Source: Porticoccaceae bacterium
GTDB taxonomy: Bacteria > Pseudomonadota > Gammaproteobacteria > Pseudomonadales > Porticoccaceae
Assembly (NCBI GenBank): GCA_038135995.1
Contig: JAYPYO010000003.1
Coordinates: forward strand, 20,854-84,853
Direction of reading: 5' to 3'
DNA length: 64,000 nucleotides
A program made the translations under genes and the position numbers. The first letter of the stretch is position 1. Every line of letters begins with the position of its first letter. Below are positions 10,217-28,907 of this stretch, piece by piece. The notes under the pieces are model-generated. The model worked only from the letters and a program-made list of their open reading frames with translations. It ran no database searches and had not been told where the DNA came from.

Positions 10217-10411
10217 GGGCTATTTGATCCGGCTACAGGGCACGCCATTACTGGATTTATACCAAGACACAATTTTATTAATGGCAACTGGCTACGGCGG
10301 CGAAAAATAGCTTAATAACCCTCAGAGCTGTTGTTCTTTTGCTTCAAAAACAATATGATTTGTATCGTTTTAAGGAAAACAGTTAATTAAAATAATAAAT
10401 GGAGACAAACT

Positions 10412-11977: not shown

Positions 11978-11979
11978 CT

Positions 11980-13137
11980 ATGTCGACACAAATAATTCTG
12001 CCGCGCATTTTGCAGATTGGTGATGGCGCCAGCCAGGAGGCTGGCAATATTCTCAACAGCCTAGAGTGCCAGCGACCTTTGATTGTTACAGATAGCATGA
12101 TGGTGCAGCTGGGCTATGTTGCCCGCCTGCAGGAGAGCCTTGAAGGCGCGTCTATTGCCTCGGATATTTTTCAGGACACTGTGCCGGAACCCACAGTAAG
12201 CTCGATTCAGGCCGGTGTAGACAGGGTTCGCGATGGCAACTACGACAGCATTATTGCAATCGGCGGTGGCAGCCCCATCGACAGCGCCAAAGCCATTGCT
12301 ATTTTGGGCAAATATGGCGGCGTGATGCGTGACTATAAATTCCCGCGGGTAGTCAATGAGCCGGGACTGCCAATTATCGCCATTCCCACTACTGCCGGCA
12401 CTGGCTCAGAGTGCACCAAGGTTACCATTATTACCGATGAGACCAACGATGAAAAAATGCTCTGCGTTGGCGTGGGCTTTATGCCTACCGCGGCTCTGGT
12501 CGACTACAGCCTGACCCTTAGCCTACCCGCGAGGACCACGGCAGATACAGGCATTGATGCCCTGACCCACGCTATGGAAGCCTATGTCAGTAAAAAGGCC
12601 AGCTTGTACAGCGATAGCCAAGCCATAGCGGCAATGAAACTACTGGCCCCTAATTTACGCAAAGCCTTCCATGATGGCAGTGACCAAAAAGCACGAGAAG
12701 AAATGATGCTTGGGGCAACTCTGGCCGGCGTAGCCTTCTCCAATGCTTCGGTGGCCCTGGTGCATGGCATGTCGCGCCCTATAGGTGCGTTCTATCATGT
12801 GCCCCATGGTCTCTCCAATGCCATGCTTCTACCCATGGTCACTGAGTTTAGTATTCCGGCCGCGCCCGAGCGCTATGCCGACTGTGCCCGTGCCATGGGT
12901 GTGGCTAGTTATTCTGACAGTGATGAACTTGCCAACAGCAAACTGATGGACGAGCTCTATGCTATCAATAAAGAACTACAGGTACCCAGTCCCGAGCAGT
13001 TTGGTATTGATCGCGACCACTTTTTTAATAACTTGCCGGTGATGGCTGAGCAGGCGTTGGCCTCAGGTTCACCCGGCAACAATCCCCGAGTACCCAGCGC
13101 CGATGAGATTATCGAGATCTATCGCAAGCTTTGGTAA
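11980..13137 (+). CDS. Iron-containing alcohol dehydrogenase (DddB-like, probable 3-hydroxypropionate dehydrogenase)
   Basis: GGGSPIDSAK, PTTAGTGSE, DALTHAME, LVHGMS, HGLSNA metal and NAD motifs. Confidence 0.88.
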   Translation: MSTQIILPRILQIGDGASQEAGNILNSLECQRPLIVTDSMMVQLGYVARLQESLEGASIASDIFQDTVPEPTVSSIQAGVDRVRDGNYDSIIAIGGGSPIDSAKAIAILGKYGGVMRDYKFPRVVNEPGLPIIAIPTTAGTGSECTKVTIITDETNDEKMLCVGVGFMPTAALVDYSLTLSLPARTTADTGIDALTHAMEAYVSKKASLYSDSQAIAAMKLLAPNLRKAFHDGSDQKAREEMMLGATLAGVAFSNASVALVHGMSRPIGAFYHVPHGLSNAMLLPMVTEFSIPAAPERYADCARAMGVASYSDSDELANSKLMDELYAINKELQVPSPEQFGIDRDHFFNNLPVMAEQALASGSPGNNPRVPSADEIIEIYRKLW

Positions 13138-13160
13138 AACCACTTTTTGAGGACAGCACA

Positions 13161-14657
13161 ATGACATTAGTAGGACATTTAATAAACGGCCAGATAACCA
13201 ATGGGGGCAAGCGCACTCAGGATGTCTACAATCCATCCACCGGAGAAGTGAGCAAGCAGGTTGCCCTGGCCTCAAAGGCTACAGTGGAAGACGCAATTGC
13301 TGCGGCCGAGGCAGCTTACCCCGAATGGCGCAATACCCCGGCCATCAAACGCGCCCGGGTGATGTTTAAATTTAAGGATTTGCTGGAACAGAATGCCGAA
13401 AAAATCTGCGCATTAATCGGCGAAGAGCACGGTAAGATCAGCCATGATGCCGCGGGCGAACTGCAGCGTGGCATCGAGAATGTGGAGTATGCCTGCTGTG
13501 CGCCCGAGCTGCTAAAAGGCGAGCACAGTAAAAATGTGGCGCCCAATATTGATTCCTGGAGCGAGTTCCAACCGCTTGGAGTAGTGGCAGGTATTACCCC
13601 ATTTAATTTCCCTGCTATGGTCCCTCTGTGGATGTACCCAATGGCCATCGTCTGCGGCAACTGCTTTGTACTCAAACCCTCGGAGCGCGACCCAACTTCC
13701 ACATTGTTTATTGCTGAACTGCTGAAAGAAGCCGGATTGCCCGATGGTGTAATGAATGTGGTCAACGGCGATAAAGAAGCTGTGGACACATTGCTTCACG
13801 ATGAGCGCATCAAGGCAGTGAGCTTTGTTGGCTCCACTCCCATCGCCGAATATATCTATAGCACCGCCAATGCCAACGGCAAGCGCTGCCAGGCCCTGGG
13901 CGGCGCCAAGAACCATGCGATTGTAATGCCAGATGCGGATATGGATAACGCAGTAGCCCAGCTGCTCGGTGCTGCCTTTGGCTCCTCCGGTGAACGCTGC
14001 ATGGCCCTGTCTGTTGCCGTAGCTGTTGGCGATGCCGCGGCAGATGCTCTGGTCAGCAAAATGCAGGAGGCCATGAAAACCCTAAAAATTGGCCCCTGCC
14101 AGGATGCAAATAATGATTTTGGCCCAGTGATTACCCAGCAGCATCAGCAAAAGGTATTTGGCCATATCGACAGTGCCGAACAGCAGGGAGCCGAGGTTGT
14201 AGTCGATGGCCGCAACCCCAGTATTGCGGGCTATGAAAATGGTTTCTATGTGGGTGGCACATTGATTGATCGCGTGACCCCTGATATGGATAGCTACAAT
14301 GCTGAAATCTTTGGTCCTGTGCTTCAGGTGGTGCGTGTCGATACCATGCAGGCGGCCATGGATCTGATTGACGATCACGAGTACGGCAATGGCACCTGTA
14401 TCTTCACCAGAGACGGTGAAGCGGCGCGCTATTTCTCTGATCATATTCAGGTGGGTATGGTGGGCATTAATATTCCTCTGCCTGTGCCCGTGGCCTACCA
14501 CAGTTTTGGTGGCTGGAAGCGCTCATTATTTGGTGATCTCCATGCCTATGGCCCGGATGCTGTACGCTTTTATACCAAGCGCAAAACCATCACTCAGCGC
14601 TGGCCTTCAGCTGGTGTGCGTGAAGGTGCCCAGTTCTCTATGCCAACCATGAGCTAA
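13161..14657 (+). CDS. mmsA: CoA-acylating (methyl)malonate-semialdehyde dehydrogenase (MmsA/DddC)
   Basis: ITPFNFPAMVPLW, LKPSERDP, FVGSTPIAEYIY, GGAKNH, GERCMA, EIFGPVL, SFGGWKRSLFGD. ATG 13161 with GAGGA SD is preferred over the track start at 13131. Confidence 0.92.
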   Translation: MTLVGHLINGQITNGGKRTQDVYNPSTGEVSKQVALASKATVEDAIAAAEAAYPEWRNTPAIKRARVMFKFKDLLEQNAEKICALIGEEHGKISHDAAGELQRGIENVEYACCAPELLKGEHSKNVAPNIDSWSEFQPLGVVAGITPFNFPAMVPLWMYPMAIVCGNCFVLKPSERDPTSTLFIAELLKEAGLPDGVMNVVNGDKEAVDTLLHDERIKAVSFVGSTPIAEYIYSTANANGKRCQALGGAKNHAIVMPDADMDNAVAQLLGAAFGSSGERCMALSVAVAVGDAAADALVSKMQEAMKTLKIGPCQDANNDFGPVITQQHQQKVFGHIDSAEQQGAEVVVDGRNPSIAGYENGFYVGGTLIDRVTPDMDSYNAEIFGPVLQVVRVDTMQAAMDLIDDHEYGNGTCIFTRDGEAARYFSDHIQVGMVGINIPLPVPVAYHSFGGWKRSLFGDLHAYGPDAVRFYTKRKTITQRWPSAGVREGAQFSMPTMS

Positions 14658-14666
14658 TAGATAGCT

Positions 14667-15431
14667 ATGAACACCAGAGAAAAAGGGTCTGCGGTCAGCC
14701 GCGTTATGCAGATTATTGAAGCAGTAGCCAGAGCCGAGCGACCTCCGTCGCCGGCCGATCTGGCCTGCCAGCTGAACATTCCCAAACCAAGCATCCACCG
14801 CCTGTTAAATCAGTTGGAGGATGATGGATTTGTGCAGACTAATCTGCGCGGGCTAATTTTGCCCAGCGCCAAAATGCACAGTATCGCCTGGGGAGTACTG
14901 CACACCGAGCGATTTAGTGCAGCGCGCAGGGCCATACTGCAAGAGCTGACTGAGAAGATTGATGAGACCTGTGGCATCGCCGTGCCCAGAGGGACGGAAA
15001 TGGTGTACTACGATAGGGTGCAGTCAGATTGGCCACTGCAGATTGATCTGCAAGTGGGTAGTCACACTCCCAGCTGGTGCACTGCCAGTGGCAAACTCTA
15101 TCTGAGTTCGCTACCCAGAGAGCGCCGCCGTCGGATTATCGATAAATTGCCCCTGATGCAGTACACGCGCAATACTATTGTTGATACGCAGATTCTGGAA
15201 GCAGAGCTTGAGCAGATAAAAGTAAGTCGCGTGGGAACAGACAATCAAGAGTTTGTCGATGGTATGGTGGCTTGCGCTGTGCCCATAAATGATAGCAGCG
15301 GTAAGCTCTGTGCCTGTCTGTTTACCCATGCTCCGGTGATTCGCAAAAGCTTTGACGAACTAATGGCCTATACGCCGGTTTTAGAAAGCGCCGCGCAAAA
15401 CCTTGGTCAGCTGATTGATCAACCTGATTAA
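14667..15431 (+). CDS. IclR-family transcriptional regulator
   Basis: N-terminal HTH (..LNIPKPSIHRLLNQL), C-terminal HCT-like WCTASGKLYL, DNQEFVDGMVACAVPI. Confidence 0.88.
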   Translation: MNTREKGSAVSRVMQIIEAVARAERPPSPADLACQLNIPKPSIHRLLNQLEDDGFVQTNLRGLILPSAKMHSIAWGVLHTERFSAARRAILQELTEKIDETCGIAVPRGTEMVYYDRVQSDWPLQIDLQVGSHTPSWCTASGKLYLSSLPRERRRRIIDKLPLMQYTRNTIVDTQILEAELEQIKVSRVGTDNQEFVDGMVACAVPINDSSGKLCACLFTHAPVIRKSFDELMAYTPVLESAAQNLGQLIDQPD

Positions 15432-15458
15432 TCAGCAGTCAACCCCCAGGAGATAATC

Positions 15459-16355
15459 ATGAAAAAAAGATTACCGCCTCTCAACTGGCTGCGCTCTTTT
15501 GAGGCTGCCGCCCGACACCTAAACTTTACCCAGGCCGCTGCAGAATTGCATATGACTCAGGCTGCGGTCAGCCAACAGATTAAGGGCCTGGAAACCACGC
15601 TGGGTTGTGCGCTATTTATCCGCCTTGCCCGGGGGCTAGAACTTACTGATGCGGGCCGGGCCTATATCCCCGGCGTGCGGGAGTCCATTGAGAAACTGGC
15701 TGTGGTCACCGATGAGGTATTCGGCAAAGAACGCAGCTACACGCTAACCCTGCGCGTTAATCTGGTGTTTTTTAATACCTGGCTGGCACCCAAACTAGCA
15801 GACTTTCGTCAACGCTATCCAGATATTGATTTGCGTTTTACCAGCAATATCTGGGTCGCTGGTCATGACCGGGAGGCAGATGTTGAAATTCGCTACGGCA
15901 AAGGTTCCTGGCCTGGATTTACCAGCAATCGATTAACCTGGGATGAACTGATCCCGGTGTGTAGCCCTGAACTATTAGATGGTGAGCTCCCCCCAACAGA
16001 CCCTAAAGATCTGAATAACTATAGCTTGCTGCATGTCATTGGCTACGAGGAAGGCTGGGGTTACTGGCTTAATCAGCTGGGCTATCACAGCATTGATGCC
16101 TCCCAGGGTATTCATTTTGATTCTTTGATGACGGCTATGGAAATGGCTGCTCACGGGCATGGAGTTGCCCTCAGCCGAACCTCTTTAATAACGCCTATGG
16201 TAGATTCAGGCCGCTTGATCACGCCGTTTACACAGACTACCGGAACGTCCGAATCGTTCTTTCTGGCTACACCCTCAGATAAGCCAGTTCGATCTCATGT
16301 AGAGCAATTTCGTCAGTGGTTGATCGAAAAATCAGGAATGGAACTAGGCGCTTAA
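15459..16355 (+). CDS. LysR-family regulator, GcvA-like
   Basis: LPPLNWLRSFEAAARHLNFTQAAAELHMTQAAVSQQIK.LE is the GcvA-subfamily N-terminus. Confidence 0.9.
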   Translation: MKKRLPPLNWLRSFEAAARHLNFTQAAAELHMTQAAVSQQIKGLETTLGCALFIRLARGLELTDAGRAYIPGVRESIEKLAVVTDEVFGKERSYTLTLRVNLVFFNTWLAPKLADFRQRYPDIDLRFTSNIWVAGHDREADVEIRYGKGSWPGFTSNRLTWDELIPVCSPELLDGELPPTDPKDLNNYSLLHVIGYEEGWGYWLNQLGYHSIDASQGIHFDSLMTAMEMAAHGHGVALSRTSLITPMVDSGRLITPFTQTTGTSESFFLATPSDKPVRSHVEQFRQWLIEKSGMELGA

Positions 16356-16367: not shown

Positions 16368-17099
16368 TTAGTCCCCCGCCCCCGCTCTTGAACTGTCAGT
16401 GGATTCAACTAGAACTCTGGCAACCAGATTATCCAGCTCATGCCACAGACTATCCTCAATCTCGATACCCAGCTCTAACAGCTGGGTGTAGCTGTTAATC
16501 ATAGATTCCGGTGAAATACCGTCGGCCAGCGGACCCGGATGAATAGTCCTGGCAAATCTCTGCTCGATAACAGATAAATCACTGCCTGCAAAGATAATCA
16601 GCGACTGATCAGCGGTAATAGCTGATGGTGAATATCTACTGAGCGAAGGCTGTTTTGCACCAGGCTCTATGCTGAGCTTAAAACCATTCTGCTCCTCAAC
16701 CCAATAAGCCACCAGCGCTGACCCCAGCTGCGCGGCACTAACCAGACGCTGGGCGACAAAACGACGATTGTGACAGTTATTAAGCTGCACCTGACCGCTG
16801 CCATGCTGGCGAGCTAGAGCGCAAGCCAGACGCACGGCCTGACTGCCACACAGCAACACAGAGCTGCTCTGACCATCGAGCACCGCATAGTCATCTCCAT
16901 CGGTAATTAATTTGGCGTGAAGGCACAGGCAATTGTAGAGAGAGGGCAAGGCCTCCCGCAGCTGTTGCAAGCCATTTAAGCCATGCATCTCAGACCAGAT
17001 AACCATGGCCGCCGCGTCCTGATAATCGCCCACGGAAAAGCCCAGACCTTCAAACGCCTTCTTTAGGGACGCAGTCAATTCATTGCGAGAGACTCTCAT
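16368..17099 (-). CDS. DUF3726-like protein (degenerate Ldh_2-fold homolog)
   Basis: Starts MRVSRNELTASLKKAFEGLG at ATG 17099, 4 nt after the upstream stop. The track's extension to 17396 overlaps the upstream gene. The DUF assignment is from recall. Confidence 0.7.
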   Translation of the reverse strand: MRVSRNELTASLKKAFEGLGFSVGDYQDAAAMVIWSEMHGLNGLQQLREALPSLYNCLCLHAKLITDGDDYAVLDGQSSSVLLCGSQAVRLACALARQHGSGQVQLNNCHNRRFVAQRLVSAAQLGSALVAYWVEEQNGFKLSIEPGAKQPSLSRYSPSAITADQSLIIFAGSDLSVIEQRFARTIHPGPLADGISPESMINSYTQLLELGIEIEDSLWHELDNLVARVLVESTDSSRAGAGD

Positions 17100-17103
17100 G
17101 CTG

Positions 17104-18936
17104 TTAGCCGGTGCTGGAATCAGTGTTGCTGGAATCCGGGTTATTGGAAAGCACCGGTTTAATGGGAAACTGCCAGTCGTCAAAGAACGGTTTATCAAAG
17201 TCGCTGATGAGTGGCGCACCCTGAAACATGGTGTTGCGTACCCAGAGGCGAGAACGCGGATCAAATTTGCTAACCCCAAAAAACGACAGCTTGCAGCGCA
17301 GTAGATGGATAGGCAGCACATCGCTGTGCACCAGATTCTCGCGAATATCTCCGTACTGACTCTGAGCCATGGTCTGAATGCGACAGATGGCACCACTCAG
17401 ATTGGGTTGCTGGAGAATAAAATGAGCCACATCCTGCTGCGGAAATTCTGCACTGTGGGCGCAGATTTGGTCGTAACAATCACGCACCATGCGTCCTATA
17501 GCCAGGGGCATTTGTTTTTCCATACCCATATCCACATGAGTTTGCCCAAGTCGTGGCTCCATTTTCTCCTCTGACCTATACCAGAAGGAACCCTGAGACT
17601 CAGCCTGACTAAAATCAATAGCCAGTGCCCAGTCATATTTATCTTCGATAAGCGCCTGTAATTCCACCAGAGACATCTGCGGGATCAGATGCTGATCTTC
17701 ATCAACCGCCATCATTTCTTCAAGCTCATCGACAAGCTCTGGGTACAGCTCAATCAAGAGACTATTGATCACTTCCTGAGTCTCAACATGCCAGCTCTGC
17801 TCGGCATAGCCGACAAGCTCTGCCCAGCTGTAGTGGCTGGCGATAATATTTTTGCCTTCGGCCTGTAACCATTGCCCAAGTTGCTGCAACTCTTCGCGAA
17901 CCAGGCCATTGGAGATATTTTGCTGGGCATCTGCGGTGCTAATTTCGCTCAGGTGCTGAATTACTCTGGCGATAGCAACAGAAAATTTATCCAGGTGAGC
18001 CCTGTCTATACCCTGATCACCAGCAACAATGGCTCGAGCCAGGGCAGTTTCGCGCTGCTCGATCCATTGATTTATCAACAGCGGATGATTAATTAAAAAT
18101 GGCGCCATTCCCAGTCCGGTTGAATTGCCAATACCAAAGTAGCGTTTGATATCGTCATCCAGTTTTACGGCAGTCTTGGGCGCGCGCTGAGAGGCTATGT
18201 AATCCGCATGCTGCAAACTGAAGTGCCGCAGCATAAAGCAGGTAAACATTTCTGCGGCAAAGGGGCGGGCAAAATCACGATGTTTGGTGCGCACCTTTTC
18301 CCAGTCGGCCATACCCAGCTTGCCGCTGCCATAGGCGGCGGTGGTGCGATAGAGATAGCCGACCTCGGCAATCACATCCACATCTGGCTGACGACCACTA
18401 GCCAACTCATCAACTACATAGTCAAAAGTGCGGCCACTGCGATTACCCCGCGACAACACAAATACTCGGGAATCAACCCGCCCTGCCTCTTGCTTGGGAA
18501 CATTATTGCGCAGAAATTCAAGCTGTTCGGCATCCACTGTGCCTTCGCAGAGTGCCATGGTCAGGTCCCACTGATTGGCGATTACCCGATCATTGCGATT
18601 TTCCGGATCAAGGTAGTGGGAAAACAACACATAGCTGTAGGTACCATATCTGGCTTTGACTTCGTAAACAGCGGTACCATAGCCCTCTTTATCCAGATCA
18701 AAAACACTGGTTTTGATCTGCCAGTTTTCCTGCACCATGCGGCGCACTAATGTGCGCATAAAACTCAGACGCGACTGGTGAAAACTACCCAACCTGTTCA
18801 GCTGCATTACCTGGCTTGCAGGGCGCATTGGCAGCCCAGCGTTGCGGCTGTCACTGTTGCTGCGGCCTGCTTTAGGGCTACTGCCATGACTATGATCATG
18901 GCTGGAGGTGGCAGTTGATCTGTATGAGGAATGCAC
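17104..18936 (-). CDS. Conserved hypothetical protein (610 aa, no recognisable domain)
   Basis: Long operonic ORF with conserved-looking blocks RLGSFHQSRLSFMR, GYLYRTTAAYGSGKLG, GIGNSTGLGMAPFL, LRCKLSFFG..KFDPRS..WVR.TMFQGAP. Start is GTG 18936 or ATG 18828. Confidence 0.8.
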   Translation of the reverse strand: MHSSYRSTATSSHDHSHGSSPKAGRSNSDSRNAGLPMRPASQVMQLNRLGSFHQSRLSFMRTLVRRMVQENWQIKTSVFDLDKEGYGTAVYEVKARYGTYSYVLFSHYLDPENRNDRVIANQWDLTMALCEGTVDAEQLEFLRNNVPKQEAGRVDSRVFVLSRGNRSGRTFDYVVDELASGRQPDVDVIAEVGYLYRTTAAYGSGKLGMADWEKVRTKHRDFARPFAAEMFTCFMLRHFSLQHADYIASQRAPKTAVKLDDDIKRYFGIGNSTGLGMAPFLINHPLLINQWIEQRETALARAIVAGDQGIDRAHLDKFSVAIARVIQHLSEISTADAQQNISNGLVREELQQLGQWLQAEGKNIIASHYSWAELVGYAEQSWHVETQEVINSLLIELYPELVDELEEMMAVDEDQHLIPQMSLVELQALIEDKYDWALAIDFSQAESQGSFWYRSEEKMEPRLGQTHVDMGMEKQMPLAIGRMVRDCYDQICAHSAEFPQQDVAHFILQQPNLSGAICRIQTMAQSQYGDIRENLVHSDVLPIHLLRCKLSFFGVSKFDPRSRLWVRNTMFQGAPLISDFDKPFFDDWQFPIKPVLSNNPDSSNTDSSTG

Positions 18937-19014
18937 GGGCGGTACCTATAAAAATAGTGATCATGGACCACTGTTTCGACCTGAAATTTTCGGCTATTTT
19001 AGGCCTAGTACTAC

Positions 19015-19090
19015 CCCCAGACTTAACTAAAAACGACACAGAAAGCGCGGTTACGACATAGATATTTTTCGCAGTTAACTGGGGTTTTTT
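19015..19090. repeat. Intergenic imperfect inverted repeat / structured element
   Basis: CCCCAG(AC)TTAACT-AAAAA ... TTTTT(CGC)-AGTTAACTGGGG followed by T6 on the plus strand. Confidence 0.35.
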
Positions 19091-19129
19091 ATAACTTTTT
19101 GAACCTGTTATGGGCAACCTATTGTCTGG

Positions 19130-20125
19130 TCAAGAGGGAGTACCCGGAAAAGATTTTTCAAAGAATCCCAGCCAGTTTTGGCCCATAATTTTCTCTATAT
19201 CTGCATTGGCAAAACCCTGGTCTTCAAGACCCTGAGCCACTGTCAGCATATCTTTTGAACCCGCAAACCAGTTGGGCTGGCGAGGCCATGAGGGATTGGC
19301 TGCAGAGCCTTCACCATGGTCAATACCCATAGTCCAGCGACCGCTGCGCATCCACTCCAGAGTTGAATAGCCCCAGTTTTCACAGAGATCCGAGCCAATA
19401 CCTATGCGGTCGACACCAATCATTTCGGCGGTTTGAGCTATCATCTGGCAAAATTCTTCGAGGCTGCAGTCTGAGCCATTTTTAAGATGGAAGGGATACA
19501 TGCTAAAGCCCAGCATACCCTCTGACTCACCAATGGCGCGCAGCACTCTGTCAGATTTATTGCGCAGTGCCGGGTGGAAAAAACTTGGGTTGGCATGGGT
19601 AATGGCTATAGGCCGCTCGGATATTTCTATAGCTTCGAGGGTGGATTTTTCAGCGCTGTGGGACATATCGATAATCATGCCTACGCGGTTCATCTCTTTG
19701 ATCACTTCGCGGCCAAATCTGGTGATACCACCATCCTGCTCTTCATAACAGCCGGTGGCCAGCAGACTCTGATTGTTGTAGCTGAGCTGCATAATGCGCA
19801 CCCCCAGCTGTTGCAGAATCTGCACCATTTTTACATCGTCTTCTATAGGCGAGCAGTTCTGAAAACCAAAGATAATGCCCACCTTGCCCAAACGCTTGGC
19901 TTCAAGGATATCCGCAGCCTGATGAATTGGCATAATCAAATCGGCATGGTTGATAAAATGCCGATTCCAGTTGCCAATATTCTCCAATGTCTCGCGAATA
20001 TTTTCCCAGTAGGCGATGGTGACATGAATGGCACTTAAGCCACTGCGCTGGGCCTGTTCAAATAGGTCGCGGTTCCAATTGACATATTGCAGCCCGTCGA
20101 CAAGTAGCATATCTCTGTTCATCAC
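19130..20125 (-). CDS. Membrane-dipeptidase (peptidase M19)-family amidohydrolase, atypical metal site
   Basis: MQLSYN, GITRFGREVIKEMNRVGMIIDMSH, ITHAN, RNKSD, GIGSD. The N-terminal DGLQY replaces the usual HxD. Confidence 0.85.
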   Translation of the reverse strand: MMNRDMLLVDGLQYVNWNRDLFEQAQRSGLSAIHVTIAYWENIRETLENIGNWNRHFINHADLIMPIHQAADILEAKRLGKVGIIFGFQNCSPIEDDVKMVQILQQLGVRIMQLSYNNQSLLATGCYEEQDGGITRFGREVIKEMNRVGMIIDMSHSAEKSTLEAIEISERPIAITHANPSFFHPALRNKSDRVLRAIGESEGMLGFSMYPFHLKNGSDCSLEEFCQMIAQTAEMIGVDRIGIGSDLCENWGYSTLEWMRSGRWTMGIDHGEGSAANPSWPRQPNWFAGSKDMLTVAQGLEDQGFANADIEKIMGQNWLGFFEKSFPGTPS

Positions 20126-20142
20126 TGAATCCTGATTACCAA

Positions 20143-21588
20143 TTAATAGGGCTTGCTGTAGTTGGTCTTAATAATGGTGTAGAAGTCTCGCGCGTACTGA
20201 CCCTGTTCCCGCGGACCATAGCTTGAATTTTTGCGACCGCCAAAGGGCACATGATAGTCGGTACCTGCGGTAGGCAGGTTAACCATCACACAGCCTGACT
20301 TGGAGTGACGCTTAAAGTGACCCGCATTAGCCAGACTATTAGTAATAATCCCTGAGGTCAGACCAAAGTCTGAATCATTGGAAACCGCCAGTGCCTGTTC
20401 ATAGCTATCAACTTTGATCACACAAGCAATGGGGCCAAATACCTCTTCCCGGTTAATACGCATCTGATTATTGGTGTTTACAAACAGTGCTGGCGACATA
20501 TAAAAACCTTCGGTCTCCATGCTCAGAGCCTCGCCACCCAATACCAGCTCTGCACCCTCATCTTTGGCTATCTGCATATAGTCGAGGTTTTGCTGCAGCT
20601 GGCGCCCATCAACTACTGGGCCAATTTGCGAGCCCTCGGCCAGAGCATGCCCGACAACCAGATTGCTCACAGCCTCGGTCATCTTGGCAACAAACTTATC
20701 ATGAATACCCGCCTGCACAATCAGTCGTGATGAGGCCGTGCATTTTTGCCCTGTGCCAAAATAGGCACCGGCAACTGCACATTGCACTGCTACATCCAGA
20801 TCTGCATCGTCTAGCACCACCAGGGCATTTTTACTGCCCATCTCAAGTTGCACCCGGGCCATATTGTCAATCGCATTGCGAGCAATATGACGACCTACGC
20901 CAACTGAACCTGTAAAGGTGACTGCTTGAATATCTGGAGATGTACACAGAGTCTCACCCACATCGCTCCCCGAACCCATAACCAGGTTAAATACACCAGC
21001 GGGCAAGCCGCTGCGGCTAATAATTTCGGCCAGTATCCAGGCACTGGCAGGCACCAGCTCTGCGGGCTTGAGCACCACTGAATTGCCGTAGGCCAGGGCA
21101 GGAGCAACTTTCCAAGCGGCGACCGCCATAGGAAAGTTCCAGGGCGTTACAATACCGATCACACCCAGAGGTTCACGATGAACCTCAACATCGACGCCTG
21201 GACGCACTGACTGAGTATTTTCTCCCATCAGACGCAGAGTTTCGGCAGCATAGTATTGAAAGAACTGACCGGATCTAAACACCTCACCTACGCCCTCAGC
21301 GCGGGTTTTACCCTCTTCCCGGGCCAGAATCTCGCCAATTTCGCCACTGCGGGCAATTAGCTCGGCGCCAATAAAGTCCAGCACTGCCTTGCGCTGTTCC
21401 AATCCACTCTGAGACCAGTCGTCGAAAGCTGCATTGGCAGCTCCGATAGCGGCCAGACAGTCTTCATTAGTAGCCTTGGCATAACGACCCACTAGGTCGC
21501 TGGTATCCGAGGGATTAATATTTTCAATGACCGCCGAGCTACTCACCCATTCGCCGTTGATATAGTTGTTGTACAAATCCTGACTCAT
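20143..21588 (-). CDS. Aldehyde dehydrogenase (2-oxoglutarate-semialdehyde dehydrogenase-like)
   Basis: TPWNFP, LKPAE, FTGS, LEMGSKN, catalytic GQKCTASSR, EEVFGP, PFGGRKNS. ATG 21588 has a GGAG SD. Confidence 0.88.
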   Translation of the reverse strand: MSQDLYNNYINGEWVSSSAVIENINPSDTSDLVGRYAKATNEDCLAAIGAANAAFDDWSQSGLEQRKAVLDFIGAELIARSGEIGEILAREEGKTRAEGVGEVFRSGQFFQYYAAETLRLMGENTQSVRPGVDVEVHREPLGVIGIVTPWNFPMAVAAWKVAPALAYGNSVVLKPAELVPASAWILAEIISRSGLPAGVFNLVMGSGSDVGETLCTSPDIQAVTFTGSVGVGRHIARNAIDNMARVQLEMGSKNALVVLDDADLDVAVQCAVAGAYFGTGQKCTASSRLIVQAGIHDKFVAKMTEAVSNLVVGHALAEGSQIGPVVDGRQLQQNLDYMQIAKDEGAELVLGGEALSMETEGFYMSPALFVNTNNQMRINREEVFGPIACVIKVDSYEQALAVSNDSDFGLTSGIITNSLANAGHFKRHSKSGCVMVNLPTAGTDYHVPFGGRKNSSYGPREQGQYARDFYTIIKTNYSKPY

Positions 21589-21749
21589 ACTGACTCCGCT
21601 GATTATCTTTGACATCGGTTGACGCAATAGCGACACATTTTTATCTTTCCGCACCTATAAATCTAATCAAAACTTCCTATAGATTTATAAGCATAATTAA
21701 TTTATCCTTGATTCTAATATAACCATAAATAAATCCAATAAAAGAGTTT

Positions 21750-22694
21750 ATTATCAAATACTTAAACGTAACACTGCGCCATCTGCGCACGTTTATCACT
21801 GTGGCTGAGGAAGGGAGTTTTAATGGCGCCGCCGAAAAGTTATCGCGCACCCAGCCAGCTATTACCCTGGCAGTAAAGCAGCTGGAGGAATTTATTGGCC
21901 TAAAGCTGCTGGAGCGCACCACCAGGCAGGTGAGCACGACCACTGAGGGCGAGAATTTTATCCCTATAGCCCAGCGTTTGGTCCGCGACTTTGATACCGC
22001 TATCTACGATCTGCGAGCTACGGCTGAGCGTCGCAGCGGCCATGTCAGCATGGCTATTGTGCCCTCAGTTGCCAGCAATGTGCTGCCGGATATTGTTAAA
22101 ACCTTTGCTGCGGAATTTCCCGGTATTCATCTGCATCTCGATGATGACAGCTCGCAGGGAGTGCAGCGGCGGGTCGAGCGCAACGAAGTAGACTTTGGCT
22201 TGGGCAGCCTGTGGAAGCCTAACAAACTGTTGGAATTCAGGCCGCTGTTTGCCGACAAACTGGAGCTGATTTGTCACCGAGATCACGAGCTGGCGCAAAA
22301 GTCTGATGATGTGCACTTGAAAGAGTTAGAGAACAGTACGTTCTTGGATACTGGCATTACCCAGACATTGCGCATACGGGAGAACTTCGGCGAATCCAAG
22401 TTCGATTTCCCCAATATCACCACATTGCTAGCGATGTTAAAATCCAATCTTGGTGTTTCGGTGCTACCCTCTCTGGCGATTCCCAAATCTACAGGTGACC
22501 TTGTATCCAGGCCTCTCTTCCCCACCGAGGTACGCGAGATTTACCTGATTACCCGCAAGGGCTGGACCCTATCACCGGCCGCAGAGGCCATGATAGAAAC
22601 CATTATTCGCGAGACGCCCAATCAGGTGGAAAAACACCGCCTAACCCTGCTCTACCCAAGCAAGAAAGCACCCTCCAGCAAAGTCAGGGGCTGA
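21750..22694 (+). CDS. LysR-family regulator, probably with a non-AUG start
   Basis: The frame is open from 21729. The HTH start LNVTLRHLRTFITV lies upstream of the first canonical start (GTG 21801). ATT 21750 or ATC 21753 follows AAGAG at 21742-21746. Confidence 0.85.
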   Translation: MIKYLNVTLRHLRTFITVAEEGSFNGAAEKLSRTQPAITLAVKQLEEFIGLKLLERTTRQVSTTTEGENFIPIAQRLVRDFDTAIYDLRATAERRSGHVSMAIVPSVASNVLPDIVKTFAAEFPGIHLHLDDDSSQGVQRRVERNEVDFGLGSLWKPNKLLEFRPLFADKLELICHRDHELAQKSDDVHLKELENSTFLDTGITQTLRIRENFGESKFDFPNITTLLAMLKSNLGVSVLPSLAIPKSTGDLVSRPLFPTEVREIYLITRKGWTLSPAAEAMIETIIRETPNQVEKHRLTLLYPSKKAPSSKVRG

Positions 22695-23697
22695 GGAATT
22701 CTCTGCAACTGGCCAACAGGGTCTCGGTAACCTGTATACCTTCGGCGGCAGTCTTGGCGCGGTTGGCATAGCGACGATTACCAGGCATATGAGCGCCCTC
22801 CATACCGGCCAATCGCTCGAGAAAAGACTCTGAATGCTGGAGCCAGTTGGCTTCGTCACCAAAGCGGCTGGGATCAAGGGCCAGCATAAATTCACCACCA
22901 TTGGGTGGGCCACCATCGTTGTTGTCGTTTTTCTGAGCTTCAAAGCTGAAGTCCATGCCGGTCAGACCAGCTACTAACAACTCGATCATCATGGCAATGG
23001 TAGAACCCTTGTGGCCCCCAAAGGGCAACAATGCACCACCATCAATAATTTTTTGTGGCTCAGTGGTTGGGTTTCCCTCGGCATCTACCCCTGTGCCCAG
23101 AGGCACATCATGCCCATCGCGAGCGGCAATCATTACTTCGCCGCGAGCCATGGAGGCCGATGCCTGATCAAAGACCATTGGAGGCTGGTCCCCTCTGGGC
23201 CAGCCAAAGCACATGGGATTGGTGCCAAATAATGGCTGCTTGGCGCCGGCCGGAACCACTGCCGGCTTGTAGGTAGTAAACGCCATGGCAGCACAACCGG
23301 CCTCTGCGATGGGCTCGACCTCAACCCAGAGTGCAGCAAAATGATGCACATTGACCAGTGCCAGAGCAGCAATACCATTTTCCCGAGCCGCCTCTATCAG
23401 CGCATCGCGGCCCGCCTCCAGGGCCAGTGGCGCGTAGCCATGATCACCATCCACCCGAACCACGGCTGGAGAGATTCGGCTGACACTGGGTCTGGCACTG
23501 CCATTGACCTTGCCACTGCGCAGTGAGGCAATATAGCCGGGTAAGCGGAATAAACCGTGGGAGGCACATCCATCGCGCTCGGCGGCTGCAATGGTGCGAG
23601 CCACGGCTGCAGCATTTTCATGATCACAGCCATTGGCGGTTAAGCAGTCTTCTACCAGCGCCTGTACTTCTTGCTCAGTCATGTTTACGTGAGACAT
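22684..23697 (-). CDS. Ldh_2-family oxidoreductase (DpkA/LhpI/ComC-like imine or 2-oxoacid reductase)
   Basis: ERDGCASHGLFRL, VDGDHG, VHHFAAL, FGTNPMCF, FDQASAS, LPFGGHKGS. Confidence 0.85.
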   Translation of the reverse strand: MSHVNMTEQEVQALVEDCLTANGCDHENAAAVARTIAAAERDGCASHGLFRLPGYIASLRSGKVNGSARPSVSRISPAVVRVDGDHGYAPLALEAGRDALIEAARENGIAALALVNVHHFAALWVEVEPIAEAGCAAMAFTTYKPAVVPAGAKQPLFGTNPMCFGWPRGDQPPMVFDQASASMARGEVMIAARDGHDVPLGTGVDAEGNPTTEPQKIIDGGALLPFGGHKGSTIAMMIELLVAGLTGMDFSFEAQKNDNNDGGPPNGGEFMLALDPSRFGDEANWLQHSESFLERLAGMEGAHMPGNRRYANRAKTAAEGIQVTETLLASCREFLSP

Positions 23698-23725: not shown

Positions 23726-25765
23726 TTATTTAATGGGATAGCGATCCAGCACTGGACCCAATGCCTGCTTAAGCGGATCCAGGCAGTCTTCAAAGTTTTT
23801 CCACTGCTCCAGACCGCTGGTATAAATTGGTTGCCTTACCTGCTCTGCACTGGGCGTGCGCACAGAGCGCTGGTTTTCATGGAAGCTGATACAGCCCTCC
23901 TCAAAGGGCAGACCGCAGTAATCCAGAATGCGGCGCACCTGAGTATCAAGATCAGCGACCACGTCCTCATACTGCACTCGCAGCACCTTGCCCGGGAGCA
24001 CATTGTCCCAGTGATCCATCAACTCAACATAGTTGCGATAATAGGTGCCCACCTCTTCCAAACCATAGGTAAACTCCTGACCCTCGAAAAACAGCTGCTT
24101 AAAGCCACTAAAGCAGCAGGCCATGGGGTGACGGCGGGCATCAATAATTTTTGCATTGGGCAAAATCATATGGATCAGGCCAATATCGCGGAAGTTATTG
24201 GGCATCTTGTCGATAAAATAAGGTGCGCCCTCGCGATGGATCTGAGTTTCATCTATATAAGTCTGCCCCAACTTTGCAGCCATCTCTGGAGTCAACTGAG
24301 CCAGCACCTGAGGATATCGAGGCTCTTCAAAAACCGTGCGCCGGCCATTTAAACGGTGAGCGATGGCGGGAATATTATTTAATTCCAATGTGCCGTCGAC
24401 CATGGAGTGAGAGGCCAGAATCTGCTCAAGCAGCGTAGAGCCAGCCCGGGGCAGGCCGACAATAAAAATAGGGTCTGGTGCAGTACAGCCAGCTTGACCA
24501 AACTTGTCAAATAGTTCTCTGGTACAGAATTTTTGCTGCAGCGCTATCTTGTAGGACATACGATCTTTGTCGTACTGCACATCTTCTTTCTTAAGCTGAT
24601 TGCCGCTGATGTAGTAGTCACCTGCCGCGGCGTAATCACCGGCATCTTCCATGGCTTTGCCCAGAGCAAAGCTGAGATGAATTTTATCATCTAAGGCAGT
24701 GGCATCCGCCTGTTGATGCTCTCGCATCTGATTTATCTCGGCATCCTCAAACCTGTAGGTTTTAAGATTAGCCAGACTCCAAAATGCATCGCCAAAATCC
24801 GGTTTAGCGCGGTAGACGGCACGATAAGCTTCAACTGCCTCGTCCAGTCGACCTATGGTTTTAAGTGCATGGCCACGCAGTAAATGGGCCGGCGCCGCAT
24901 TGGGGTCTGCGGCCACAAACTCATCATAAAGAGCCAGTGCCTCTTCGAACCTGCCCACGGCAACACATTGGTTGGCATAGGAGAATCTGTATTTATTATT
25001 ATCTGGCTCGGCGTCTAATAGTATCTGCGCTTGCTCCATACAGAGTTCAAACTTCTGTCGCTTATACAGCACATTCATATAGTCGAAGCGCACTAGCTTA
25101 TTCTCTGGCTCATATACCAGCGCACTCTCGAGAATAAATTCTGCATCATCCAGTACATGAGTTTTAACACCCAGGTCTGCCAGCAGGCGCATGCCCTCAA
25201 TATGCTTGGGTTGTTTTTGCAAAAAGCTTCGACACAGCTGCTCCGCCTTCGATAGTTTGCCCTCCTCCATCATATTTCTTACACCCAATAGCTCAGGAGG
25301 AAGCGCTGCCAGTCGCTGGTACTGGTCTTTAAAATAATCGTGGGCTTTTTGATCAATCGCCGGATCAGTCAAGCTCATCAGCATCTGCCAACTGGCAATC
25401 AGGCTGCTGTTGTGGGTGGCAGCTTGCTGAAAGGCCAGACGCGCTTCATCGCGCTGATGACGAGCCATAGAGACATGACCCTTCTCTTGCCAGGCACGGC
25501 CATAGGTCGGCTCAATTTCAAGTAACCGGTCCAGAGAATCCAGAGCCGCCGTGTAATTTTCTCTAAATCTATGGGCGACAGCATTAAAGTACAGCGCCTC
25601 GGAATGATTGGGGTAGTCGGCCAGCAATCGCTCCATAAGCATCTGCGCGTCGGCAAACTCACCCCCCTGAATAAGTGCCTTGGCCTGGGACAACAGAGTG
25701 ACCGCTTGCTCCGCCGAGATAATCTCCGATCCTTCCCGATGACTAGTTTGGTCGCTGACAGACAT
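23726..25765 (-). CDS. TPR-repeat sulfotransferase family protein
   Basis: About 430 aa of TPR-like helical repeats, then IFIVGLPRAGSTLLEQIL (5'-PSB), FIDKMPNN, RHPMACCFS (3'-PB), VRTPSAEQVRQPI. Confidence 0.9.
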   Translation of the reverse strand: MSVSDQTSHREGSEIISAEQAVTLLSQAKALIQGGEFADAQMLMERLLADYPNHSEALYFNAVAHRFRENYTAALDSLDRLLEIEPTYGRAWQEKGHVSMARHQRDEARLAFQQAATHNSSLIASWQMLMSLTDPAIDQKAHDYFKDQYQRLAALPPELLGVRNMMEEGKLSKAEQLCRSFLQKQPKHIEGMRLLADLGVKTHVLDDAEFILESALVYEPENKLVRFDYMNVLYKRQKFELCMEQAQILLDAEPDNNKYRFSYANQCVAVGRFEEALALYDEFVAADPNAAPAHLLRGHALKTIGRLDEAVEAYRAVYRAKPDFGDAFWSLANLKTYRFEDAEINQMREHQQADATALDDKIHLSFALGKAMEDAGDYAAAGDYYISGNQLKKEDVQYDKDRMSYKIALQQKFCTRELFDKFGQAGCTAPDPIFIVGLPRAGSTLLEQILASHSMVDGTLELNNIPAIAHRLNGRRTVFEEPRYPQVLAQLTPEMAAKLGQTYIDETQIHREGAPYFIDKMPNNFRDIGLIHMILPNAKIIDARRHPMACCFSGFKQLFFEGQEFTYGLEEVGTYYRNYVELMDHWDNVLPGKVLRVQYEDVVADLDTQVRRILDYCGLPFEEGCISFHENQRSVRTPSAEQVRQPIYTSGLEQWKNFEDCLDPLKQALGPVLDRYPIK

Positions 25766-25834
25766 GGTGTTTCCTGTTACCTGAGCTTTCGTTAGATTTA
25801 TAACACATTAATTAGGCAGTCTTACAAGTTAATA

Positions 25835-25866
25835 CAAGAAAGGCGAGCCTAGGCTCGCCTTTCTTG
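25835..25866 (-). terminator. Intrinsic terminator (perfect 32-bp palindrome) after the TonB-dependent receptor
   Basis: CAAGAAAGGCGAGCCT-AGGCTCGCCTTTCTTG is self-complementary and lies 27 nt past the receptor stop. Confidence 0.75.
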
Positions 25867-25893
25867 ATACTTCGAGTTAACGATTTTTAACGA

Positions 25894-28536
25894 TTAGTTA
25901 AAGTCGTAGTTGAAACGCATACCAATAGTGCGAGGACGGTTGGTAGTAGTTCTCTCGAGGAAGTCCTGACGGTTGATGTGCAACTGAGCACGCTCGTCAG
26001 TCAGGTTGCTGACATACAGCTCAACACCCCAACCAGCGTCAGTGGTTACACCAGCTGCAGCATCCATGATGACATAGCTGTCCTGCATGGTGTTGGGCTC
26101 TTCGTTAGTGTCAACAATAGAGTTGAGCGCCTCGCCTGAGTACTTACCACCAATCTGCCAGAAGGCCTCCATACCAGAAGACATATCCCAGGCATAACGC
26201 GCACGGAGATTGCCCTGGAACTCAGGAGTCAGTGGCAGAGGACGACCCTCATCCTGAACAACAAATGAGAAGCCTGGGTCTACACGAACCAGTTCAGTAT
26301 CGTTGTAAGACATGGCTCCAAAGAGAGTCAGGTTGTCGCTGACAGCCCAAACCATATCCATTTCCAGACCAGAGATCTCTGCGTCACCACCGTTATCAAC
26401 AATGGTGAAAATAGAGATATTCTGAGAGTCAAACTGAGATACCTGAATATCTTCCCAGTCGATCTGGTACAGCGAGCCATTAAGACGCATGTTGCCATCC
26501 ATCAGAGTCAGCTTCCAACCAAGTTCAAGGTTGTCCAGGGTATCTGAATCAAACTTGTAGGGCAGGCAGTAGCCTGGGAAACCGTTATCTTTGGCTGGTA
26601 CATCTACACAGTCAGTGCCATCGTAGGTGCCCTTCTGCGCCGCACCACGGTTAAACCCTGGTGGACGGTAGCCCTCAGAGGAAGTGACATAGAGCAACAC
26701 ATCTTCGTTAGGTGTCCAGGTCACGGTGAACTTAGTGATGGTATCCGTGGTGCTGATGGGCTGCAGAACATTAAACTTCTGCGCATAATCTCGACCACCA
26801 GTCACATTGGGGATTACGTCATTTGTAGGGTCGTTATCATCAACAAACAGCGGACGGTTACCATAGCGCCATGCACCATAGCCAGTAAAACCATACTCCA
26901 GATCGTAGTAACGCGCCGAGGCAGCCACTGTTAACGTATCGCTGAGGTCATAGGACAGCTCACCAAAGACTGCAACCTGCTCTTCGTTACGATGGTTGTC
27001 GTTACGGAACTGGGTAGCAGGGCTAACCAGGCCACGGGCGTTGGCAGCCGCATCGTCCAGAGACGAGTTCAGGTTGATATCTATGGGTGTAAAGCCCGCT
27101 TCTGCTGGCCCTAAATAGTTAAAGTTACCAACGTGAAGGATTTCAGCATCTTCGTAGAAAACACCACCAGTGAAGCGCATATCGGCATCTGGATCAGTAG
27201 ACACACGCAATTCATGAGTCATACGTGTGTTTTCGTTTTCCGCGTTAAAGTTGTTGGCAGGGTTGCCACATTCAATCACACCAGTGTTGCCGCTGAGGGT
27301 TGGATCCCAGCTGTAGTTAGCCTGACCAATATCCAGACCATGGTAGTAAGAACCGGTCAGGTATTCACACTGGTAGCCAGGAATATAGGCACCAATATTG
27401 GAGTAACCCGTGTAGTCCAAACGCTGAGAAACCTCACGATCCAGATAAGCACCGGTGTAAACCAGATCAAGTGCGCCAGCACGACCTTCAAGGGTCCAGG
27501 CAAACTGAGTGAACTCATCTTCCAGAGAATCTTCGGTGAAACGTGCAACTTTAAGGTCACCCAGAGCTTCGTCATAGTCAAAAACGCCCTGAGTCTTCAG
27601 CGACTGCTGAGTAAACTGCAGCAGCGCCGACCAGTCGTCGTTGATCAGATATTTGGCGCCAAGACGCATGCCCTGATAAGACACGTCGTTGAAGTCATCT
27701 TCCACCAGGCCGGAGCTTGTAGCAGTGTTGTACTGCACTGGAACAGTTAATCCACCCTCACCCACTACAGTACCATTGCCAAAAATATGGCCTTCATCAA
27801 AGGTCACAGAATCGCCAGGATAAGCAGGGTTCAGAGCAGGATTTGCAGTGAAGGTACCTTCGACATTGTCGATGTAACCGCCTTTGTTATCGGCGTAAAC
27901 TGCAGCGCGAAATGCCAACTTACCTTCGATAACAGGGATGTTGATCATGGCTTCTACTTTATTGCTGTCTTCACCACCAGAGGTGCTGGAGTATCCGGCA
28001 GACAGACTGGCTGCAAACTCGTCAATCACTGGCTTGTTGGTGATCAGTCGCACCGTACCAGCCTGAGAGCTGGCACCATAAAGAGTGCCCTGAGGTCCAG
28101 GAAGTACCTCAATACGCTCCATATCGGTAATATACACGTCTAGGTTGCGACCACCCGCAGTGACTGGTTGCTCATCCAGATAGAGCGCAACGTTTGGCGC
28201 TGAACCCTGAGATTCCGCAACCGAGATATTGATCGCATCAACAGCTGCACCGCGGATGTAGATTTCATTCTGACCAGGGCCACGGCCACCGGCGTTAACA
28301 CTTGGAAGATACTTTACGTAATCTTCAAAGCTAGTAACATTTTGCTCTTCAAGAGACTCTTCCGTCATGGCCTGAACGGCAATCGGAATATCTTGCATAC
28401 TGGCTGATTTCTTGGTCGCCGTAACCACAACCTCTTCCAGCATGCCTTCAGCTACGGCAACACCAGCAGTGCTTGCAGCCATACCTGCAGCAATCACTGA
28501 GATAACAGCTCGGTTTACTTTCGTCTTACGAAACAT
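25894..28536 (-). CDS. TonB-dependent receptor
   Basis: Signal peptide MFRKTKVNRAVISVIAAG..., TonB box LEEVVVTA, plug RIEVLPGPQGTLYG, C-terminal RFNYDFN. ATG 28536 has a GGAGA SD. Confidence 0.93.
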   Translation of the reverse strand: MFRKTKVNRAVISVIAAGMAASTAGVAVAEGMLEEVVVTATKKSASMQDIPIAVQAMTEESLEEQNVTSFEDYVKYLPSVNAGGRGPGQNEIYIRGAAVDAINISVAESQGSAPNVALYLDEQPVTAGGRNLDVYITDMERIEVLPGPQGTLYGASSQAGTVRLITNKPVIDEFAASLSAGYSSTSGGEDSNKVEAMINIPVIEGKLAFRAAVYADNKGGYIDNVEGTFTANPALNPAYPGDSVTFDEGHIFGNGTVVGEGGLTVPVQYNTATSSGLVEDDFNDVSYQGMRLGAKYLINDDWSALLQFTQQSLKTQGVFDYDEALGDLKVARFTEDSLEDEFTQFAWTLEGRAGALDLVYTGAYLDREVSQRLDYTGYSNIGAYIPGYQCEYLTGSYYHGLDIGQANYSWDPTLSGNTGVIECGNPANNFNAENENTRMTHELRVSTDPDADMRFTGGVFYEDAEILHVGNFNYLGPAEAGFTPIDINLNSSLDDAAANARGLVSPATQFRNDNHRNEEQVAVFGELSYDLSDTLTVAASARYYDLEYGFTGYGAWRYGNRPLFVDDNDPTNDVIPNVTGGRDYAQKFNVLQPISTTDTITKFTVTWTPNEDVLLYVTSSEGYRPPGFNRGAAQKGTYDGTDCVDVPAKDNGFPGYCLPYKFDSDTLDNLELGWKLTLMDGNMRLNGSLYQIDWEDIQVSQFDSQNISIFTIVDNGGDAEISGLEMDMVWAVSDNLTLFGAMSYNDTELVRVDPGFSFVVQDEGRPLPLTPEFQGNLRARYAWDMSSGMEAFWQIGGKYSGEALNSIVDTNEEPNTMQDSYVIMDAAAGVTTDAGWGVELYVSNLTDERAQLHINRQDFLERTTTNRPRTIGMRFNYDFN

Positions 28537-28907
28537 AGGATTCTCCCCGATGAATGATTTAATTGTCCTACTACTGGCCTTCTCCAAATCATTGCGCTGT
28601 TAGTAAGCGCAACCCGACCAATTTTTTATTTCCACATGATGATACTCGCCCAGCATGCTGAGAGACACAAATTAAAAAACCAAATGTATATATAATTTTT
28701 TATTATTAATTGAAATCGCCGCTGTAATTCTCAGCTATTTGAGTATAAAACGATTAAATCGGCAAAACCCACATTTTGAGATTAACGCCCAAAGTATTTA
28801 GCGGTCACGCTTAAATGAGAATAACTGAATTCGCAACTTAAATCGCGGCGACAGCGGATTTTCGCAGTTTTTTTGTAGAATCTCAGCAACCGGACTTGAG
28901 CAAGCTC

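Follow-up and report, generated by a model that had tools for sequence, protein, structure and literature searches.

The DNA considered here is a 64-kb window (the whole stretch analysed) of a 2.3-Mb Porticoccaceae (SAR92) assembly, and our subject is a cluster of genes within it that resembles hom, the operon for catabolism of homarine (N-methylpicolinate). Genes were called from a listing of open reading frames (ORFs) combined with Pfam and NCBIfam profile searches. Four of them follow one another on the minus strand over 5.3 kb (16368-21588): homD, encoding an NAD(P)-dependent aldehyde dehydrogenase (ALDH; 20143..21588; PF00171, 2e-157); homC, encoding an M19-family amidohydrolase of a non-canonical subfamily (19130..20125; PF01244, 2.6e-76); homB, whose product of ~574 aa has no known domain and is the orthologue of Cobetia HomB (17104..18828); and homA, encoding a 243-aa DUF3726 protein (16368..17099; PF12525, 1.8e-14). 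Divergent from homD, on the plus strand, lies the gene for a LysR-family regulator, homR (21753/21801..22694; PF00126 and PF03466), with a perfect dyad at 21656..21689 in the intervening region as a candidate HomR operator. Next to homR the minus strand carries a gene for a predicted DpkA-like NAD(P)H imine reductase of the Ldh_2 family (22684..23697; PF02615, 5.7e-103), and upstream of that gene are one for a protein with TPR repeats and a sulfotransferase domain (23726..25765; PF13469, 2.3e-54) and one for a TonB-dependent outer-membrane receptor with plug and beta-barrel domains (25894..28587), both also on the minus strand.

An earlier reading of the letters alone, which we call the original prediction, had proposed ALDH, M19, DUF3726, LysR and Ldh_2 genes and a 610-aa ORF at this locus, and all six are found where it had placed them. 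Its description of the 610-aa product as an unknown stands, but the length probably does not. The longest homB ORF (18936..17104) uses an alternative GTG start at 18936 to reach 610 aa; since the homology of 1375 representative HomB relatives begins at residues 33-37 of that ORF, the likely start is the ATG at 18828 (M37), giving 574 aa. For homA the start is the ATG at 17099, 4 nt past the homB stop, which yields the 243-aa protein. We rejected the 342-aa DUF3726 ORF as listed, which overlaps the preceding gene and in which PF12525 begins only at residue 102.

The hom operon was published by Ferrer-Gonzalez et al. (Nat Microbiol 2026; PMC13236597). In Cobetia sp. OBi1 it comprises homE, homA, homB, homT (a BCCT carrier), homC, homD and homR (ACFLL8_11490-11520), and in Ruegeria pomeroyi DSS-3 homA, homB, homC, homD and homR (SPO3188-3192), with homA measuring ~700 nt and homB ~1,700 nt, HomC described as a predicted peptidase and HomD as an aldehyde dehydrogenase (PMC13236597). 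Growth on homarine is lost in homB, homC, homD and homR knockouts; labelled homarine passes its carbon and nitrogen to N-methylglutamate and on to glutamate, the demethylation being performed by Mgd; and intermediates of formula C7H9NO5, C6H9NO4 and C6H9NO3 accumulate (PMC13236597). SAR92/Porticoccaceae are named among the carriers and expressers of hom, Porticoccaceae homC, homD and mgdA transcripts rose in homarine-amended seawater, and in situ Porticoccaceae homB expression followed homarine (PMC13236597). The survey in that study counted as carriers genomes with homA, homB, homC and homD within 10 kb, a distance within which all four lie in the window.

As a sequence link to the published operon we used a Cobetia amphilecti locus (L082), reached through a Halomonas HomB search for named proteins. 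There a minus-strand LysR gene is divergent from genes for an Aldedh protein, a Peptidase_M19 protein, a BCCT carrier, a domainless protein of 599 aa, a DUF3726/Ldh_2 protein (262 aa) and a Ribonuc_L-PSP protein (127 aa): the same seven genes, in the same order, as the published Cobetia operon. Searched against the whole genome that carries the window, the Cobetia proteins match the window genes uniquely or best. HomD is 64% identical to the window protein (556 bits, against 235 for the next ALDH of the genome); HomC at 60%, HomB at 46% over 591 aa and HomA at 30% each find their sole match in the genome here; and for HomR the window regulator is the best match, at 35%. The window proteins also agree with the approximate sizes taken for orthologues of HomB (575-600 aa) and HomA (240-260 aa). 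The original prediction had suggested exactly such a comparison with published homarine genes, and its half-remembered homarine operon from Cobetia and Ruegeria is this system (PMC13236597).

Gene neighbourhoods, another check that it had put forward, tell the same story. Among 80 named species genomes found with a 12-sequence HomB alignment, 54 hold D-C-(T)-B-A together; the carriers come from many orders and include Pseudomonas, Halomonadaceae, Marinobacter, Oceanospirillales, Woeseiaceae and Hellea. Synteny that recurs this often puts the gene arrangement far from chance. In the clusters of ten HomB representatives, the only named members were Caballeronia and Sporosarcina. Ruegeria arenilitoris (L017) has a HomB of the gammaproteobacterial type that shares 56% identity with the window protein; its layout is R-B-A, and the 7 kb upstream contain neither homC nor homD, which suggests horizontal transfer or a split cluster.

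Taken together, the locus is very probably the Porticoccaceae (SAR92) version of the hom operon, joined by a lineage-specific accessory unit (the TonB receptor, the TPR-sulfotransferase protein and the DpkA-like reductase) and by probable mgdABCD and purU genes 10 kb away. The pathway is thus not an undescribed one, as the original prediction had it: the operon is in print, with SAR92/Porticoccaceae already listed among its carriers (PMC13236597). The functional guess made at the time, that a cyclic N-methylated algal osmolyte is turned into N-methylglutamate and then glutamate, fits well, with homarine as the osmolyte by orthology to hom (PMC13236597).

The accessory reductase merits closer attention. 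The window protein matches PF02615 over its full length (residues 8-329) and is 47% identical over 318 aa to Pseudomonas syringae DpkA (1wtj; 306 bits, against 155 for the next solved structure), with the SHGxFRxPGY, HHFAALW, GTNP and LLPFGGHKGS blocks conserved between the two; in a tree it is sister to DpkA with support of 1.0. DpkA is an NADPH imine reductase that can also form N-methyl amino acids out of 2-oxo acids and methylamine; what this activity does physiologically has been described as elusive (PMC6110843).

What, then, stands in this place in other hom clusters? The published operon contains homE, whose identity is not stated in the main text of PMC13236597 and which is optional, about one third of carrier genomes lacking it (PMC13236597). 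In the C. amphilecti locus HomE is the 127-aa protein of the RidA family (PF01042, Ribonuc_L-PSP). A RidA gene follows homA in Halomonadaceae, Pseudomonas and Marinobacter and ends the D-C-T unit in Amphritea, Marinobacterium, Oceanimonas and others, and both positions are those described for homE (PMC13236597). We had also considered the Ldh_2 gene itself as homE, a notion rejected on the evidence of the Halomonadaceae and Cobetia loci, where homE is RidA. The genome carrying the window has no RidA-type homE near hom; its only RidA gene is a distant one on contig C18.

Counting accessory genes near hom in the 54 loci with homB, homC and homD, we find RidA in 27, Ldh_2 in 13, neither in 14 and both in none (Fisher's exact p = 4e-5, a value that is overstated because the genomes are related). 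In the tree, the Ldh_2 genes at hom loci fall into two separate lineages. One is the sister lineage of DpkA, with members in the window, other Porticoccaceae/Cellvibrionales, Woeseiaceae and Hellea that share 51-90% identity with one another. The other, 31-37% identical to DpkA and to the window gene, occurs in Arenicella, Halioglobus, Pelagibius, Magnetovibrio and others. Loci of other orders with a gene of this second lineage in or beside hom, and without RidA, are L021, L030, L031, L033, L055, L070, L078 and L095.

Orthologues of the window reductase adjoin homD in six further loci (L004, L016, L019, L024, L027 and L036), and in Woeseiaceae and Hellea 77-120 nt separate it from homD, which follows in the same orientation. 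Within the order, 201 sampled genomes include a same-genus relative that has HomB together with an 89% identical reductase, identically spaced; another same-genus and two same-family relatives have neither. The original prediction was right to call the protein a DpkA-like reductase, and the link that it saw between this gene and the cluster is real.

The two genes upstream of the reductase behave differently. The sulfotransferase gene lies 28 nt upstream of the Ldh_2 gene and is itself preceded by the TonB receptor gene. In seven named genomes from four lineages (L004, L016, L019, L024, L027, L036 and L030) a sulfotransferase gene is found directly upstream of Ldh_2/hom. We also scanned metagenomes for loci centred on the sulfotransferase protein and obtained 79 (L085-L163), nearly all of which have the receptor followed by the sulfotransferase; the pair is generic and often sits beside BCCT carriers. 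Among these loci, Ldh_2 directly follows the pair only where hom follows in turn (L085, L112, L117, L119 and L131). In L124 and L152 it also follows the pair, and there the contig ends right past the reductase. L096 has the sulfotransferase gene joined directly to homDCBA, with no reductase between them, and L121 has three tandem receptor-sulfotransferase pairs. In short, the reductase is tied to hom itself, unlike the pair upstream of it. From its gene neighbourhoods we take the pair for a putative outer-membrane uptake module of general use, attached to hom in several lineages. Just past the stop of the window's TonB receptor gene, at 25820-25870, there is a GC-rich hairpin (GAAAGGCGAGCC / GGCTCGCCTTTC) followed by a T-rich stretch; the TonB receptor on the one hand and the sulfotransferase-reductase pair on the other may be separate transcripts.

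We now turn to the core proteins. HomA and HomB have been compared with the flavin-dependent pair TgnA/TgnB (PMC13236597). An AlphaFold2 (AF2) model of HomA with a mean pLDDT of 94 gave 27 significant PDB matches, and all 27 are Ldh_2-family oxidoreductases (probability 1.00, TM 0.60-0.71), from which we conclude that HomA, as modelled, is a shortened Ldh_2-fold protein and not a flavin reductase. HomB has no sequence match in Pfam, NCBIfam or the PDB. Its AF2 model, built from a 44-sequence alignment, is confident (pLDDT 90.7, pTM 0.90), and a comparison with PDB folds returned no match at E<=0.001 (best E 0.35, TM <=0.10); we did not trust the scattered low-probability matches to kinase-like folds. 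Pfam detects no flavin domain in either protein. With an Ldh_2 fold modelled for HomA and no solved structure matching HomB, the analogy with TgnAB lacks sequence or fold support. The complex of HomA and HomB predicted in PMC13236597, on the other hand, is supported by the 4-nt gap between the genes and by natural fusions such as P0134, a protein of 804 aa with its DUF3726 part at 567-799. HomB relatives with such a HomA-like C-terminal domain are P0134, P0135 and P0166 (760-809 aa); another group of relatives, of 840-960 aa (P0184, P0194 and P0237 have 930-959 aa), bears a long C-terminal extension without a Pfam match.

The window ALDH, HomD, contains both catalytic motifs noted in the original prediction (LEMGSKN and GQKCTA), and its nearest NCBIfam models are the 2,5-dioxovalerate and alpha-ketoglutarate-semialdehyde dehydrogenases, which it matches with 500 and 490 bits against cut-offs of 750 and 770. 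The match of HomC to PF01244 starts at profile position 36. Its best PDB relative is 2i5g, an 'amidohydrolase' of 325 aa (240 bits); canonical (renal) dipeptidases reach at most 89 bits and align only from residue ~40 of HomC. The N-terminus of HomC reads VDGLQY, similar to IDGLII in 2i5g. Canonical M19 membrane dipeptidases have a binuclear zinc site whose ligands include an N-terminal His-x-Asp.

At the far end of the window, on the plus strand, are purU (302-1234; PurU profile score above cut-off) and the genes of a sox-like four-subunit enzyme (1257-6413), in the order beta (1257-2498), delta (~2510-2812), alpha (2812-5709) and gamma (5712-6413). The matches of the latter to sarcosine oxidase profiles remain below cut-off (beta to SoxB, 464 against 529; alpha to SoxA, 908 against 1164). 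A second four-subunit cluster in the same genome (G000, contig C4, 77178-82412) exceeds both cut-offs, with scores of 724 and 1487. As only this copy passes, the genome has a canonical sarcosine oxidase plus a divergent paralogue near hom. The occurrence of mgdABCD alongside sox genes (soxGADB) is described in PMC13236597, and the window cluster is, judged by its sequence, probably the N-methylglutamate dehydrogenase mgdABCD. Genes like mgdA or mgdC, 54-72% identical to those of the window, also lie within a few kb of homA in L052, L057, L071, L073 and L058, which belong to Luminiphilus/Halieaceae and a Pseudomonadales metagenome-assembled genome, so that linkage of hom and mgd recurs.

Between the demethylation genes and homA, window positions 7444-16355 hold a dddD-type cluster for cleavage of dimethylsulfoniopropionate (DMSP). 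Its genes are, in order, a DddD-type double CoA-transferase (904 aa, 7444-10158), a BCCT carrier divergent from it (10412-11977), an iron alcohol dehydrogenase, an ALDH of the methylmalonate-semialdehyde type, and regulators of the IclR and GcvA types; the ALDH and IclR genes also adjoin hom in L004. Profile searches thus bear out the island that the original prediction had sketched around hom, with DMSP cleavage, a BCCT importer, a demethylase of Mgd/Sox type and purU.

Two features of homR and its surroundings deserve comment. No canonical start codon is present at the conserved N-terminus, (I)KYLNVTLRHL, which has ATC (window 21750-21755). The relatives L004, L112, L117 and L119 read ATG-AAA-TAC here (MKYLN...); the window, L085 and L131 read ATC (IKYLN or IKHLN). 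Since ATC is found in three separate assemblies it is not a sequencing error, and homR may use a rare ATC/ATT start codon. The dyad between homR and homD, TATAAATCTA-N14-TAGATTTATA at 21656-21689, is perfect, and the nearest relative, L085, has a similar one. In DNA this AT-rich a dyad is weak evidence, and we regard it as a candidate operator for HomR. The 10-mer TATAAATCTA has three exact copies in the 64 kb against 0.12 expected, two of them in the dyad (21656-21665 and 21680-21689) and one ~30 nt upstream of the sulfotransferase start (25793-25802). We did not use the third copy as evidence that the sulfotransferase promoter is co-regulated with the dyad, the site being absent in L085.

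How might these proteins work together? The following scheme draws on the published formulas (PMC13236597), the gene families and the trigonelline analogy. By that analogy, a HomA/HomB complex would cleave the C5-C6 bond of the N-methylpyridinium ring, with an N-formyl-N-methyl-dehydroglutamate semialdehyde as the product. HomD would then oxidise the aldehyde to C7H9NO5, a step that fits its resemblance to 2-oxoglutarate-semialdehyde dehydrogenases, and HomC would remove the formyl group to leave C6H9NO4. These two steps are possibly interchangeable, in which case C6H9NO3 would be the product when deformylation comes first. The DpkA-like enzyme would reduce the resulting enamine/imine, 2-(methylimino)glutarate, with NAD(P)H to N-methyl-L-glutamate, whose methyl group MgdABCD would move to tetrahydrofolate, releasing glutamate. 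HomR would probably activate hom from the AT-rich dyad in the homR-homD interval. Members of the RidA family act on enamine and imine intermediates, and in other bacteria the RidA-type HomE would handle this same reactive imine. If both act on the same intermediate, the mutual exclusivity of RidA and Ldh_2 would be explained. We propose tentatively, as a possibility to which we give somewhat less than even credence, that the DpkA-like reductase (with the second Ldh_2 lineage) and the RidA-type HomE are alternatives on 2-(methylimino)glutarate, that the reductase makes N-methylglutamate there, and that the receptor-sulfotransferase pair serves in outer-membrane uptake of homarine-like quaternary amines.

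Several points weigh against this account of the locus. Substrate and induction are carried over by orthology at 30-64% identity, and the steps assigned to HomA/HomB, HomC and HomD are predicted ones. The exclusivity of RidA and Ldh_2 was counted across related genomes that are not phylogenetically independent. The reductase gene is convergent with homR and shares a transcription unit with the sulfotransferase gene, outside homDCBA. Moreover, R. pomeroyi makes N-methylglutamate with neither homE nor an in-cluster Ldh_2 gene, so another enzyme can do the reduction. Imagine, then, that the core is indeed hom but that receptor, sulfotransferase protein and reductase form an unrelated neighbouring unit that merely travels with it in a few lineages, perhaps taking up and reducing a cyclic imino acid that arises when D-lysine, D-proline or hydroxyproline is catabolised. 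In favour of this, the pair of receptor and sulfotransferase is generic and mostly occurs away from hom, DpkA is known from D-lysine and D-proline catabolism, some genomes that lack HomB carry DpkA-like genes of 44-54% identity (a point that counts against our main account as well), and the unit has its own orientation, with a terminator-like hairpin after the receptor gene. If the association were incidental, however, we would not expect Ldh_2 to follow the sulfotransferase gene directly only where hom follows, as it does across the 79 metagenome loci, nor the reductase to precede homD closely, in the same orientation, in Woeseiaceae and Hellea. That a second, unrelated Ldh_2 lineage has also been recruited to hom clusters, and that the reductase is never found together with RidA, likewise argue against it, and on balance we consider such an incidental unit unlikely, though not so unlikely that it can be passed over.

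A different possibility is that the core itself, while homologous to hom, has a substrate other than homarine in this lineage, either an N-methylated pyridinium or something akin to one, for instance trigonelline or a further derivative of picolinate. The low identity of HomA and HomB to the Cobetia proteins (30% and 46%), and accessory genes and a transporter that differ from those of the model organisms, leave room for this. Yet identity to the Cobetia enzymes reaches 60-64% for HomC and HomD, and it is in Porticoccaceae that homC, homD and mgdA transcripts rose with homarine and that homB tracked it in situ (PMC13236597), which makes another substrate distinctly improbable. Least credible of all, to the point that we hardly reckon with it, is an undescribed pathway whose substrate is the betaine of pipecolate, proline or hydroxyproline. 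DpkA-type enzymes do reduce cyclic imino acids, and the island does hold other osmolyte genes; but each of the four core genes has its orthologue in a homarine operon that has been characterised, and the cluster contains no Rieske-type or other known betaine demethylase. We find no specific support for pipecolate betaine and proline betaine, which the original prediction had entertained as substrates. Our preferred account remains a Porticoccaceae hom operon with accessory genes of its own.

Few nitrogen-containing metabolites of marine phytoplankton are more abundant than homarine, and its major consumers in coastal waters include SAR92/Porticoccaceae. In the window a single 28-kb island appears to hold the whole route, from outer-membrane receptor through ring opening and N-methylglutamate demethylation to disposal of the one-carbon unit. 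The pathway genes as such are already published; what is new is the DpkA-like reductase in place of the RidA-type homE. The analysis adds that homE is a RidA-family gene and that Ldh_2 reductases replace it in several lineages, never co-occurring with it, a replacement that points to an imine intermediate and to a candidate enzyme for the reduction step. It further adds that HomA has the NAD(P)H-oxidoreductase (Ldh_2) fold and that HomB has no solved structural relative, both of which bear on the flavin-oxygenase analogy. Should the reductase indeed work in hom, DpkA-type enzymes would gain a physiological function for their N-methyl-amino-acid dehydrogenase activity, which has long been a puzzle.

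It is instructive to set the locus beside systems that are already known. The trigonelline pathway of Acinetobacter baylyi (TgnA-E) starts from N-methylnicotinate, an isomer of homarine; the C7H9NO5 intermediate of hom fits the logic of an N-formyl-N-methyl ring-opened diacid, and in both routes ring opening is followed by aldehyde/alcohol oxidation and a hydrolase step. The hom proteins, however, are not homologous to TgnA-E, HomA does not have a flavin-reductase fold, HomB is unlike solved flavin monooxygenases, and the end product of hom is a C5 amino acid still methylated on its nitrogen. In Pseudomonas aeruginosa, PA5396-PA5397 of the dgc operon for dimethylglycine catabolism offer a parallel to HomC, in that PA5396, 978 nt long and annotated as a 'putative dipeptidase', also belongs to a catabolic operon for an N-methyl amine. 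Judging by its matching length, 2i5g may be PA5396. Partner enzymes (DgcAB) and substrate differ from those of hom. The window reductase shares with DpkA the full-length Ldh_2 fold; unlike DpkA, its context is homarine catabolism rather than that of D-lysine or D-proline, and its substrate would be, by analogy, an acyclic N-methyl imine of 2-oxoglutarate.

The closest parallel is hom itself as described from Cobetia and R. pomeroyi, with which the window shares orthologues of HomA, HomB, HomC, HomD and HomR in the same R / D C B A order, tight coupling of homB and homA, and an mgd-type demethylase in the genome. Unlike those operons, the window cluster has no internal BCCT gene (homT) and no RidA-type homE nearby; it has instead a DpkA-like Ldh_2 gene beside homR, preceded by the genes for the TPR-sulfotransferase protein and the TonB receptor, and its mgd and purU genes lie only 10 kb away.

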